From positions 2,400,001 through 2,464,000 of the forward strand of contig OZ243972.1 of NCBI GenBank assembly GCA_965214705.1: a stretch of 64,000 nucleotides of DNA, read 5' to 3'. Source of the DNA: Alphaproteobacteria bacterium (GTDB lineage: Bacteria > Pseudomonadota > Alphaproteobacteria > UBA828). Within the stretch, counting starts at the first letter, position 1. Every line of letters starts with the position of its first letter. A model generated the notes under the pieces. It made no database searches. It saw only the letters and a program-made list of their open reading frames with translations, and was not told where the DNA came from. Below, piece after piece: positions 53,359-56,293 of this stretch. The position numbers and the translations under genes were made by a program.

Positions 53359-54366
<1,008 letters not shown>

Positions 54367-54371
54367 GCCCA

Positions 54372-54589
54372 GCTTATTCGTTTCCCTCAGGCGCCGGGCG
54401 CGAACTTTTTCATTTCCCTCAACGGCGGGCGCTCGTTCCACTCGCTTGCCTACGCGCTACGCGCGCGGCGCATGTGCGCCGTCCGAGCCTGACTTTATCA
54501 TTTCCCTCAGTCGCCGGGCGCTCGCTCCGCTCGCTTGGCTACGCGCTTACGCGCGCGGCGCTGTCGCGCCGTCCGGGCCTGCGGCCCGG
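54372..54589. repeat. Tandem ~88-bp repeats (2 full + 1 partial), rich in mini-hairpins
   Basis: Units at about 54404 and 54492, partial at 54372; each contains TTTCCCTCA...GGGCGC. Confidence 0.85.
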
Positions 54590-54688
54590 TTCGCGTCAAC
54601 GGCAAACTCCTCGTTTGTTGCCGGCAGCATGAGAAACCGGACCATGGTGCGGTGCACAGGGAGGGGCGGCGCGGGGCAGCATCGCGGG

Positions 54689-55501
54689 ATGAGCCAGAAA
54701 ACATCCCGCGAGCGTATCCACACCATGCAGAACGAAACTCCCCGGAAATCCCCCGAGAGCACCCCCAAGAGCACAACGGCCGGGACGTTCGGCCGCTCCT
54801 CCATCAAGCGCCTGCCGTCCAAACTCCGCGAGGCCGTCAATCAGGCCATCGCGGACGGCGCCACCATCGACGAGATCACCGCCCGCATCCGGGCCGAAGG
54901 CGAGACATGCTCGCGCTCGGCCGTCGGCCGCTACGCCAAGAACGAGCGCGACCTGATCCGCCAGCAGCAGGAGACCGACCGCACCATCAAGGCGTGGGTG
55001 GACGCGCTGGGCGAACGGCCGGAGGGCCAGGCGGGACTCATCCTGATCGAGACCCTGCGGACCATGGCGCTCGCCACCATGGCTCGTCTCAGCGCGCGGG
55101 AAGAGCCCGTCTCGACGGAGGAGTTCGCCCGCCTCGCCCTCACCCTCAAGCGCATCGAAGGCACCGACAAGCTCCGCAAAGACCGGGAGCGGGCGGCGAA
55201 GAAGGCGGCGAACGACGCAGATCGCGCCAAGGGCCAGGGCGGGCTCTCGCCGGAGGTGGTCGCCATCATCCGCGCGGAGGTAGAGGGCAGGCCCCCGCCA
55301 CCCCCGCCTGCTCCCCGCACCGTCACATCGGTGCCGGTGGACCCGTGGAACCCCGCCGAAGCCCGCCTATACCCATCGATCCCAGCTGATCCCGGCGAGT
55401 CCCACTTGAGCCCGGATCATCGCTATGAATCCTGGACGGAAATCGCGCCGCGGGTGTTTCGCACCAGCCCCACATCGATCCTGTCCCTCGGGCCGGAGTG
55501 A
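54689..55501 (+). CDS. DUF3486/Mu gp27-like protein with Pro-rich C-terminal extension; start uncertain (54689 or 54725)
   Basis: GRSSIKRLP..LRE......GATIDEI...SRSAVGRY and GLS.E.VA.IR match the family as I recall it. Confidence 0.72.
   Translation: MSQKTSRERIHTMQNETPRKSPESTPKSTTAGTFGRSSIKRLPSKLREAVNQAIADGATIDEITARIRAEGETCSRSAVGRYAKNERDLIRQQQETDRTIKAWVDALGERPEGQAGLILIETLRTMALATMARLSAREEPVSTEEFARLALTLKRIEGTDKLRKDRERAAKKAANDADRAKGQGGLSPEVVAIIRAEVEGRPPPPPPAPRTVTSVPVDPWNPAEARLYPSIPADPGESHLSPDHRYESWTEIAPRVFRTSPTSILSLGPE
55342..55414 (+). repeat. 10-bp-phased CCCR array
   Basis: CCC[AG] at 55342, 55352, 55362, 55372, 55381, 55391, 55401 and 55411. Confidence 0.7.
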
Positions 55502-55507
55502 GGCGGG

Positions 55508-56293
55508 CTAGTACGCCGAGAGAAACGACTTCAGCGCGGCCGTGAACGCCGGCGCCCGCTCGATATTCGAGAGGTGAGCGGCGTCGAGTTCCAGATACTG
55601 AGAGCCGCCGATCCGCTCGTGCATCAGTCGCATGCCGGCCGGCGGCGTGCCGGGGTCCTGCGAGCCGGCAATCAGCAGAACGGGATGATCGATCGAGCCC
55701 AGCCGGTCGAGGTTCGCGAGCGATTGGATGGCGCGCGCGCAGCCCGTATAGCCCGCGACCGAGGTCGTGCGAATCATGTGCCGCACATCGTCGATGCGCG
55801 CGGCGCCGCTTGCCCGATAGCCCTCGGAGAACCAGCGCTCGATGGTCGACTCGACGACCGCCTCCATGCCCCCGTCGGCGACCGCGGCCACGCGCTGGTC
55901 GAAGGCGGCAATGAATGCTTCACCGCTGTGCGCAGAGGTGTTCGCCATGACCGTGGCCGTGACCCGATCCGCATGGTTGAGCAGGAGTTCCTGCACCGTC
56001 ATCCCGCCGATGGAGAGGCCCACGAAGTGGCTCTTGCCGATACCCAGGTGGTCCCAGAGGCCCACGACATCGCCCACCAGGTCGTCGAACGTGTACGGTC
56101 CCTCCACCGGCGCGGATTTGCCATGCCCGCGCTTGTCGTAGCGCAGGATGTGGAAGTCCTCGGCGAGCGCGGCCTCCTGCTCGTCCCACATGTGCAGGTT
56201 CGTTGCCAGCGAGTTGGAGAAGGTCAGCCAGGGTCCGCTCTCGTTCCCCGAAATCTCGTAGTTGATTGAGACGCCACGGATATCGGCAAGCAT
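55508..56293 (-). CDS. pcaD: 3-oxoadipate enol-lactonase-like alpha/beta hydrolase
   Basis: [31 protein letters not shown]. Confidence 0.82.

Follow-up and report, generated by a model that had tools for sequence, protein, structure and literature searches.

A Mu gp27-like small-terminase gene with a helically phased DNA array is one copy of a dispersed cassette in an alphaproteobacterial genus and may belong to a system resembling a gene transfer agent

Positions 54637-55505 of the 64-kb stretch of alphaproteobacterial DNA analyzed here (the window, G000:C1:2400001-2464000) correspond, by sequence comparison, to a single copy of a repeated three-part cassette, which consists of a promoter-like module, a gene for a small terminase (TerS) of the Mu gp27 family, and an array of units phased at 10 bp. 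The genome that carries it, G000, comprises 7.9 Mb on three replicons (C1, C2, and C3) with 67% G+C, and the sequencing runs in which the stretch recurs come mostly from metagenomes of sponges and corals. Family membership, copy number, cassette anatomy, a shared motif, and the co-occurrence and synteny of phage-type structural genes were all computed directly from these genomes. On balance, and with modest confidence, we favor the reading in which the cassettes are TerS/pac-like units of a dispersed, domesticated system that resembles a gene transfer agent (GTA), is of Mu/B3-like ancestry, and would package DNA starting from the arrays. The initial annotation of the stretch had described a compact phage-derived unit, a description that the three-part cassette bears out; its observations were confirmed, and its interpretation, that of a minimal selfish or domesticated element whose protein binds its own phased sites, is supported in part.

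The open reading frame (ORF) within the cassette encodes, by profile, a full-length member of the Mu gp27/TerS family, as had been proposed. It matches Pfam PF11985 (Phage_Mu_Gp27, formerly DUF3486) with an E value of 2.1e-25 and 90.5 bits (cut-off 28) across profile positions 1-171 of 173, and PHROG 426, annotated as 'terminase small subunit', with an E value of 6e-31. In an AlphaFold2 (AF2) model, residues 38-90 form a helix-turn-helix (HTH), with helices at residues 43-54, 59-68, and 75-106 and a predicted local distance difference test (pLDDT) score above 90, followed by long helices and by a short C-terminal helix at residues 187-198. We take this succession of HTH, long helices, and C-terminal helix to be the layout of solved TerS structures. 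The helix within residues 181-200 is kept in all paralogs and phage homologs in the alignment. A profile search of PDB sequences with gp27 gave no meaningful match.

The array near the 3′ end of the ORF contains eight CCC runs that start at 55342, 55351, 55362, 55372, 55381, 55391, 55401, and 55411, giving spacings of 9, 11, 10, 9, 10, 10, and 10. Its lag-10 autocorrelation is 0.52 compared with 0.32 in shuffles, a value reached by none of 5000 base shuffles and none of 5000 codon shuffles, and it is the highest among all 90-nt windows of the 64 kb. The helical phasing noticed at the outset is therefore real. In the copy studied here the array is translated as a proline-rich tail, which AF2 models with a pLDDT of 35-55. 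A paralog at C1:2152434 (50% identity) is arranged differently, with the motif and gene followed by a stop codon and only then by an array of another sequence flavor, GGCC; C1:2166963 is an internally deleted derivative of this GGCC type that keeps the module, the C-terminal part of gp27, and the array. Since the array follows the stop codon in one of these copies and gp27 is mostly deleted in the other, the array is a DNA-level feature of the cassette, and its translation in the window copy appears to be incidental, or at least secondary.

Two array flavors occur in G000, TCCC (e.g., AATCCCGGCGAATCCC) and GGCC (e.g., CCACCTTGGGCCACTTTGGGCCGGAATAGGCCG), and others are found elsewhere in the genus, namely GTGCC (L096, L104), GTCTC (L110), and a mixed form (L109). 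Here and below, G0xx denotes genomes and L0xx denotes loci, including loci from metagenome-assembled genomes (MAGs). The number of units differs between copies; at L053:6150-6360 the array has expanded to 18 consecutive TCCC units by way of a 40-bp higher-order repeat, and arrays can therefore grow by slippage. With respect to the expectation that homologs would share the 10-bp periodicity at their 3′ ends, an array accompanies every paralog of the genus for which downstream DNA was read, except in one long-tailed clade, where none lies within 340 nt of the domain. In members of that clade (L080:8455-9633, which is G000 C1:2799454-2800437, and L101-L103 and L108), the HTH region is weak or atypical, and the protein continues at its C-terminus for another 100-200 aa of acidic, repeat-rich sequence. 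When flavor was mapped on a tree of 57 distinct domains, five changes sufficed compared with a mean of 18.1 in shuffles, and none of 200 shuffles was as low; three labels in this tree were assigned by eye (L032, L104, L106) and seven rows are arrayless within 340 nt (five of the long-tailed clade and two outgroups). GGCC arrays form one clade (support 100) in which the single TCTC row is nested, and TGCC arrays form another (support 95). This match between flavor and clade is compatible with coevolution of protein and DNA, which it does not prove. Flavor-specific pattern counts across genomes were set aside, as descent alone predicts the same outcome. Searches for array words are also confounded by an exact 17-mer, CAATCCCGGCGAGTTCC, which occurs about 100 times in G000 (e.g., C1:6614, C2:59218, C3:288762), is unrelated to the arrays, and is probably part of a high-copy insertion sequence (IS) element.

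The promoter-like module opens with a conserved 21-nt motif whose palindrome is perfect in copies reading CCGCACC. G000 holds 15 exact copies and 12 with one mismatch, 49 in all at up to three mismatches, and a profile of the motif gives 50 matches in the genome at E <= 0.1, a single one of which falls in the window. Among aligned modules, 37 of 39 have the ATG and 28 of 39 have the pattern CANN[AC]T-N6-ATG; a dyad lies about 44 bp upstream of the ATG. These features suggest that the motif might be the operator or the -35 region of a shared promoter, in which case the spacing of the -10-like box would put the transcription start at or near the ATG and the mRNA could be leaderless. The relation of the module to the gene varies. 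In the GGCC cassette (G000 C1:2152320-2152440) an upstream ORF of 21 codons begins at the module ATG, and its stop codon overlaps the start of gp27 (TAATG). In the TCCC flavor a 36-nt insertion joins the module ATG to gp27 in frame, and the module at C3:2394432 has no ATG. An inverted repeat of 35 nt, 74% complementary, joins 54646-54680 in the module spacer with 55287-55321 in the proline-rich linker just before the array, and may reflect chance pairing of G-rich with C-rich DNA. A stem drawn by hand between CAUGGUGCG and CGCGCCAUG was dropped because two mismatches break it in the gp27 copies.

Neither the gene nor the module is single. Eight PF11985 matches in G000 exceed the cut-off and one more is weak, so that what had been taken for one gene is one of about nine paralogs. 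The term 'orphan' applied to it holds for the neighborhood and misleads at the scale of the genome: housekeeping genes or IS elements surround all nine copies, and none of the nine has a terminase, portal, or capsid gene within ~5 kb. Five other places in G000 repeat the unit from ~54549 to ~55405 at 78-90% identity, and the ORF is intact in all six of these close copies, with pairwise dN/dS over the domain of 0.31-0.63 at dS values of 0.07-0.24. Beyond the gp27 copies there are about 30 gp27-less units in G000, here called minis, which have the motif and an array and no plausible ORF and measure 150-300 nt from the putative start to an A/T-rich end; in such gp27-less modules the 10-bp units begin after 70-150 nt and finish in an A/T-rich word (...GCCTTAAAA or ...GCCTCAAATTTT). 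Behind some module-plus-mini units lie ordinary metabolic genes (phenol hydroxylase, BKACE, racemase, aldehyde dehydrogenase, and a beta-lactamase-fold protein), which we did not count as members of the system.

The comparison set comprised 20 genomes of the genus and 20 from outside it (4 from other genera of the family and 16 more distant). Matches to gp27 occur in 17 of the 20 genus genomes, where they number as many as 19 in a single genome and frequently sit at contig ends. None was found in the four other genera of the family, and only two weak ones (E 2e-4 and 2e-12) in the 16 more distant genomes. The motif lies upstream in 61 of the 65 gp27 domains having at least 250 nt of downstream DNA. 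The four without it are L051, at the start of its locus, a genus copy (L094), and two homologs from other taxa that also have no array (L070 and L072). Both motif and array are conserved in paralogs that are only 40-50% identical, and the cassette occupies the same locus in G006, G017, and G008 and in the MAG loci L033, L038, L042, and L050, although these loci may in part come from the same genomes.

The same genome encodes potential structural partners for these TerS proteins. When 110 ORFs from seven Mu-like phage or prophage loci were searched against G000 with tblastn, the matches were the gp27 copies, a large terminase (TerL), a portal, and one capsid (C3:2816658-2817602). No second phage gene was matched in the window, and the earlier claim that it holds no other stands as far as this search and the motif profile reach. 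TerL (C3:1238360-1239769; 470 aa) has a Terminase_6C domain and several PHROG TerL matches, and it adjoins a Mu-type portal (PF06074; C3:1237022-1238020, E 9e-88). The capsid, which matches PHROG 1005 and, weakly, Phage_cap_E, is part of a ~15-kb cluster directly behind the motif at C3:2819249. This cluster encodes a head protease, the major head protein, a neck protein, tail tube protein, chaperone, 269-aa tape measure, DUF1833 protein, 1225-aa GpJ-like protein, and collar-domain fiber, and is flanked by housekeeping genes and an IS66 element. The structural loci are bordered by housekeeping genes or IS66, and genes for lysogeny, replication, or transposition are absent from these flanks. Pfam searches of G000 for Terminase_6N, Phage_Mu_F, Mu-like_gpT, and Phage_capsid (HK97-type, PF05065) gave no match. 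The 21-nt motif is found between TerL and the portal (C3:1238322), before the protease-capsid-tail operon at the position given above, and before a DUF5675 gene (C3:2897534); by eye, a degenerate motif with the same -10/ATG spacing precedes TerL in G000, and a degenerate motif also precedes TerL in G002. Next to the module-preceded DUF5675 gene is a gene for a 317-aa Peptidase_S24 protein (LexA/CI-like; L113:18116-19069, G000 C3:2898.1-2899.1k), a candidate regulator of the system.

These partner genes are distributed much as gp27 is. TerL, mostly single-copy and 78-97% identical, is present in 16 of the 20 genus genomes, as is the capsid (88-99% identical), and each is found in none of the 20 genomes outside the genus; the upstream flank of TerL is syntenic in all nine loci checked. 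All three of gp27, TerL, and capsid occur together in 15 of the 20, and all three are missing from G011, G015, and G016, each of which is 100% complete. This pattern of presence, together with the synteny, points to a domesticated and vertically inherited phage-derived system as opposed to a mobile prophage. Extra paralogs of TerL (38-70% identity) and of the capsid (27-79%) in some genus genomes (G002, G006, G010, G012) may represent true prophages of the Mu-like kind, akin to the ancestor from which the domesticated set arose. An apparent ancestral order of gp27, array, and TerL in G003 was rejected, the gp27 beside TerL there being a truncated copy followed by repetitive extragenic palindromic (REP)-like repeats.

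A physical link between the dispersed TerS proteins and this TerL is predicted by modeling. A complex of TerL with gp27 residues 34-205 scored an ipSAE of 0.72, compared with 0.00 for the best of three controls. Among solved complexes, 116 of 157 attain this score, as do 2 of 215 mismatched pairs; since alignments of our own went into the model, these calibration counts are approximate. The modeled interface joins gp27 residues 181-200 with TerL residues 24-124, in the ATPase domain; agreement between runs is 44% of contacts or better, and the partner has a pLDDT of 60 or more. The C-terminal helix of gp27 is thus predicted to contact the TerL ATPase domain.

The gene set kept across the genus behind the 21-nt motif, which consists of TerL, a Mu-type portal at a syntenic locus, the 15-kb head and siphovirus-tail cluster, DUF5675, and the TerS paralogs, allows a mechanism to be proposed. 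In it, the modules would act as promoters, TerS would bind the arrays, and particles would be produced and filled from them. A common regulator would turn on all modules. TerS would assemble through its long helices, and its N-terminal HTHs would read the phased array units, one per helical turn, either next to the terS gene or in trans to it. In the general model of such enzymes, DNA wraps on TerS rings. The conserved C-terminal helix would then recruit the single TerL, which would cut the DNA and fill heads made from the C3 cluster, with headful packaging of chromosomal DNA starting at the cassettes. Such a system would be a GTA with many built-in pac sites, in which the minis would be served in trans. 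That TerS acts on phased sites of its own fits the array beside the paralogs, the match of flavor and clade, and the confidently modeled HTH. It is plausible that this scheme has a selfish side. With its own start site linked to it, a TerS gene may be exported more often than other DNA, and such preferential export would explain both the multiplication of the cassettes and the survival of TerS-less minis.

Several points weigh against this proposal. Particles, packaging starts, and transcription are all postulated, and small heads filled from some 45 sites in 7.9 Mb would leave the chromosome unevenly covered. The window array is loose, only its CCC[A/G] phasing being regular. Because gene and array are linked and the units are tandem, the match of flavor and clade can arise by descent and concerted evolution, and the predicted recognition helix, CSRSAVGRYAK, is nearly invariant across array flavors and even in phages; the differences between flavors concern few positions (G/V/A after RSAV and K/R/T at the end), which makes for a weak case for a switch in specificity. 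The -10/ATG spacing is found in only the fraction of modules given above, a consensus scan found no canonical sigma-70 promoter in 54300-55600, and a Pfam search for Mor found no Mor/C-type activator gene in G000. The presence pattern has exceptions: G018 has TerL and one gp27 match and no capsid match, and G007 (67% complete) has gp27 and capsid and no TerL match. Structural comparison gave little: Foldseek against the PDB found nothing at E <= 0.001, with the small terminases of P74-26, G20c, and Sf6 appearing only at E 1-3, and a VIA wide structure search returned helical hairpins only (best Z 7.3), with no significant TerS match. TerS and TerL are a textbook pair, and the pass of their complex, besides its rough calibration, may reflect likeness to known complexes. 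The dN/dS values, finally, indicate moderate constraint only.

An alternative is that the cassettes are selfish elements of no benefit to the host, with the gp27 copy as the 'autonomous' form and the minis as internal-deletion derivatives akin to miniature inverted-repeat transposable elements (MITEs). Their spread would proceed by preferential packaging of DNA whose array is bound by TerS, or by some other transposition route, and the idea differs from the GTA-like reading mainly in the beneficiary. The multi-copy family, the copies at contig ends in fragmented assemblies, and the deletion derivatives that keep both ends (C1:2166963 and the minis) are all consistent with it, as are differences between relatives. 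A gp27-bearing cassette in L067 is orthologous to the G000 mini C1:3291405; the presence of a cassette differs between L056 and G000 at one orthologous site (C2:171.4-171.6k); and rearrangement break-points coincide with cassettes in L045 and L049. In each of the DNA runs X1 and X5, one contig connects 54353 with 55510 and leaves out 1156 bases, which hints at an empty-site allele in a divergent relative. The comparison of L056 with G000 did not define where the cassette ends, because other repeats make a patchwork of the intergenic DNA, which differs throughout. In an alignment of the six close copies with 400-bp flanks, no terminal inverted repeats or target-site duplications were seen. The cassette encodes no transposase or recombinase domain, PF11985 being the only match above a Pfam cut-off; the copies are not near-identical, as those of active IS families are, but diverge to the extent noted above; and several species have retained the cassette at this one locus. 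Purely selfish cassettes are on these grounds an unlikely account of the family.

The TerS genes could instead belong to an anti-phage or satellite-like device, in which an infecting Mu-like phage switches on TerS and the arrays, and these divert or jam its terminase. The TerS proteins of phage-inducible chromosomal islands (PICIs) and Staphylococcus aureus pathogenicity islands (SaPIs) redirect the packaging of helper phages, and units that consist of TerS with candidate binding sites resemble this satellite strategy. The module, in the placement of its dyad, resembles an activator-dependent promoter such as the middle and late promoters of Mu, and the genus also carries the extra TerL and capsid paralogs, which may be true prophages. 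The same module, however, precedes the resident, vertically inherited TerL, portal, and head-tail cluster, so that the partner is already in the genome, and the foreign helper phage invoked in the initial annotation is not needed. When gp27, TerL, portal, DUF5675, and the S24 protein were compared with PADLOC-DB 2.0, none matched a family at E <= 0.001, and the sole entry listed was weak (gp27 to Helicase_II, E 0.0019). The motif has no instance in 2.9 million viral contigs, the nearest viral gp27 homologs are only 28-40% identical, and, as noted, no Mor/C gene was found. Defense and satellite functions are thus possible but less likely, and we regard this account as quite improbable.

A further possibility is that module and array are small RNA genes or a transcription-linked signal, with gp27 as a passenger and the array acting as RNA (for example, as a protein sponge) or representing a low-complexity coding tail. 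The minis, with their short lengths and no plausible ORF, would suit such genes, as would an array that is translated in the window copy and lies outside the ORF in the GGCC copy; the latter position also means that the 10-nt period is not a codon feature. Rfam gave no match at E <= 1 in 54200-55700, RNAalifold returned an empty consensus with no shared structure for 39 modules, and the arrays show, by eye, no regular self-complementarity. The one RNA run, X20, contributed contigs only, at low depth and ~10% divergence, and is uninformative on transcription of the locus. We consider an RNA function very unlikely. Least probable of all, and already disfavored, is the view that an old Mu-like prophage has decayed here and left a remnant that is now functionless. 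The isolation of the gene from other phage genes would suit this view, as would a truncated copy (C3:2393952) that covers profile positions 1-134 only and several matches in relatives that contain stop codons, but all six close copies are intact with dN/dS below 1, which speaks against neutral decay, the locus is shared by several species, motif and array persist in distant paralogs, and the family co-occurs with conserved TerL and capsid genes.

Comparison with known systems helps to place the GTA-like reading. The protein shares with the Mu gp27 small terminase a full-length profile match, a modeled N-terminal HTH, long helices, and the conserved C-terminal helix. In Mu-like phage contigs (L070, L084, L086-L090) the gp27 homolog lies directly before TerL and portal, which is the usual context but not a strict criterion of the family, whereas here the gene lies apart from TerL, on another replicon, and has some nine paralogs, each with a promoter-like module and a phased array. 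Neither module nor array stands beside two homologs from other taxa (L070, L072). With RcGTA the system, whose particles are putative, has in common head-tail genes without lysogeny or replication genes, split loci, conservation and synteny within the lineage, and a short tape measure. The predicted contact of the TerS C-terminus with the TerL ATPase domain also has a counterpart in RcGTA, whose TerS is reported to bind that domain by its C-terminus (PMC6854486). RcGTA differs in that its small terminase has lost its specific DNA-binding domain (PMC7947584), whereas the TerS described here keeps a modeled HTH and is multi-copy and paired with arrays; the present system also has a Mu-type portal (PF06074) and no Pfam match to an HK97-type capsid (PF05065). 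Judged by its genes, then, the system is GTA-like but not of the RcGTA type. Its structural genes are, as in GTAs, host-encoded and vertically inherited and come without phage replication or lysogeny functions.

Sites for packaging initiation occur inside or beside terS genes in phages SPP1 (pacL, pacC, and pacR) and P22 (gene 3). As in these phages, the TerS gene here carries its own candidate recognition DNA, and phasing close to the helical turn would suit the wrapping of DNA on a TerS ring; there, however, one such site lies on the phage genome, whereas here dozens are spread over a bacterial chromosome in several flavors, each with its own TerS paralog. The satellite TerS genes of SaPIs and PICIs are likewise separate from the structural genes and act on their own target DNA, for which the arrays are candidates in the present case. 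The cassettes are probably not satellites, since they contain no integrase, replication, or interference genes, and the 'helper' genes reside in the genome, are passed on vertically, and have the motif in common with the cassettes. Short copies that keep both ends of the long copy recall an autonomous element with its MITEs; the cassettes do not seem to be IS elements or MITEs, because no transposase, terminal inverted repeats, or target duplications were seen, and the copies are old. Centromere-like or iteron arrays, such as parC/ParR of plasmid R1 and tubC/TubR of pBtoxis, also have head-to-tail units of 10-12 bp beside the gene of a small DNA-binding protein. Unlike these, the cassette has no partition NTPase gene beside it, and it encodes a terminase subunit, one helix of which is predicted to bind TerL.

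The immediate surroundings of the cassette in the window (Table 1) consist of two genes that converge on it. Between these DUF3179 and hydrolase genes lie ~2.3 copies of an 89-bp hairpin repeat, the 270-aa ORF, and the periodic stretch in its 3′ part, and no integrase, replication, or regulatory gene was found within ~5 kb. Tandem Repeats Finder (TRF) reports the repeat with a period of 89 bp and 2.0 copies at 54404-54581 (87% matches), and direct-repeat families D1-D5 were found in the same region. As single-stranded DNA, the second unit forms four hairpins, with a folding energy of -31 kcal/mol (z -3.3; none of 200 shuffles as good), and the first folds less distinctly (z -1.6; 9 of 200 shuffles as good). 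The hairpin repeats reported upstream of the ORF are therefore present, but the suggestion that the unit is flanked by two arrays of its own did not hold. G000 has the 89-bp repeat at 35 places, of which most have no gp27, and each of five relatives searched has it as well, their genomes giving 45-59 scored matches apiece, chiefly to this stretch; the cassette in L056 lacks it. Judged by this distribution, the repeat is a genus-wide neighbor of the cassette, similar in behavior to a REP family, and not an integral part of it. The linker that follows it is common only to those cassettes and minis that stand behind a REP copy (e.g., the minis C1:57717, C3:2775947, and C3:2851328). At the other end, the long tail is found in three of the six close G000 copies, including that of the window, and in many relatives; the other three copies diverge at ~55405.

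Table 1. Features in and around the cassette; coordinates are window positions unless a locus is named
Feature	Position	Strand	Remarks
DUF3179 gene	53359-54366	+	Upstream neighbor, converges on the unit
REP-like hairpin repeat, ~89 bp	54366-54589	+	Partial copy 54366-54401; full copies 54404-54491 and 54492-54589
Linker between REP-like repeat and motif	54590-54636	+	From alignment of six G000 copies
Conserved 21-nt motif CCGGACCATGGTGCGGTGCAC	54637-54657	+	First 16 nt a near-palindrome
GC-rich spacer, -10-like CAGCAT (54677-54682), 6-nt spacer, ATG (54689-54691)	54658-54691	+	
terS-like gene, 270 aa	54689-55501 (ATG 54689, stop 55499-55501)	+	Pfam and PHROG matches
Phage_Mu_Gp27 domain (coding region)	54803-55288	+	Pfam
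Codons for residues 181-200 (GGLSPEVVAIIRAEVEG), C-terminal helix	55232-55291	+	Predicted TerL contact; alignment and complex model
Proline-rich linker (RPPPPPPPAPRTVTSVPV)	55289-55341	+	Copy-dependent length; pLDDT <65
10-bp phased array, TCCC flavor (units e.g. GATCCCAGCT, GATCCCGGCG, AGTCCCACTT)	55342-55414	+	Inside the open frame
Long tail ending ...CCCTCGGGCCGGAGTGAGG	55415-55505	+	Read through by the ORF; modeled as disordered, pLDDT 35-45
alpha/beta-hydrolase gene	55508-56293	-	Downstream neighbor, converges on the unit
P4-type integrase genes	L075:9537-10826, L080:9895-11181, L081:6167-7363 (G000 C1:2967k, C1:2800k, C1:56k)		

Other mobile or repeated DNA is found around cassettes elsewhere. 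P4-type tyrosine integrase genes (Arm-DNA-bind_3 and Phage_integrase domains) stand divergently beside two of the nine gp27 cassettes and one mini, and these loci may be islands that insert beside cassettes or REP copies. A dispersed repeat composed of the words GGGCATGAC, CCCGGATACCCGGAT, and CCCCCGGACTTGATCCGGGGG often lies behind cassettes (L075 downstream of C1:2966512; L056:6850-6950; L040 and L041). In L043 and L049 a TCCC gp27 cassette occupies the site at which G000 has a GGCC mini (C1:57717-58006), which suggests replacement of one cassette by another at a fixed site.

At ~50 per genome, the modules form a conspicuous repeat family that breaks assemblies and marks points of rearrangement, and the GTA-like reading would account for this family too. 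Multi-copy cassettes of TerS and array were found described nowhere in the literature searched, a coverage that left subscription journals largely outside. To our knowledge, the GTAs described so far package host DNA without specific start sites. We advance only tentatively, as a possibility that is still rather doubtful, the stronger form of the GTA-like reading, namely that this is an independent, undescribed GTA of Mu/B3-like siphophage ancestry that packages from dozens of sequence-specific arrays by means of flavor-diversified TerS paralogs (TCCC, GGCC, TGCC, TCTC). If so, the cassettes and the TerS-less minis would be 'packaging drivers' that bias which chromosomal regions and cassettes are exported, and the export of the chromosome from many programmed sites would be unlike that of known GTAs. 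The natural flavor variants with their matched sites would make the reading of DNA by TerS rings open to experiment, as would be the question of whether hosts or selfish cassettes control the cargo of a GTA. Such a system would also bear on gene flow in uncultured symbionts of sponges and corals.

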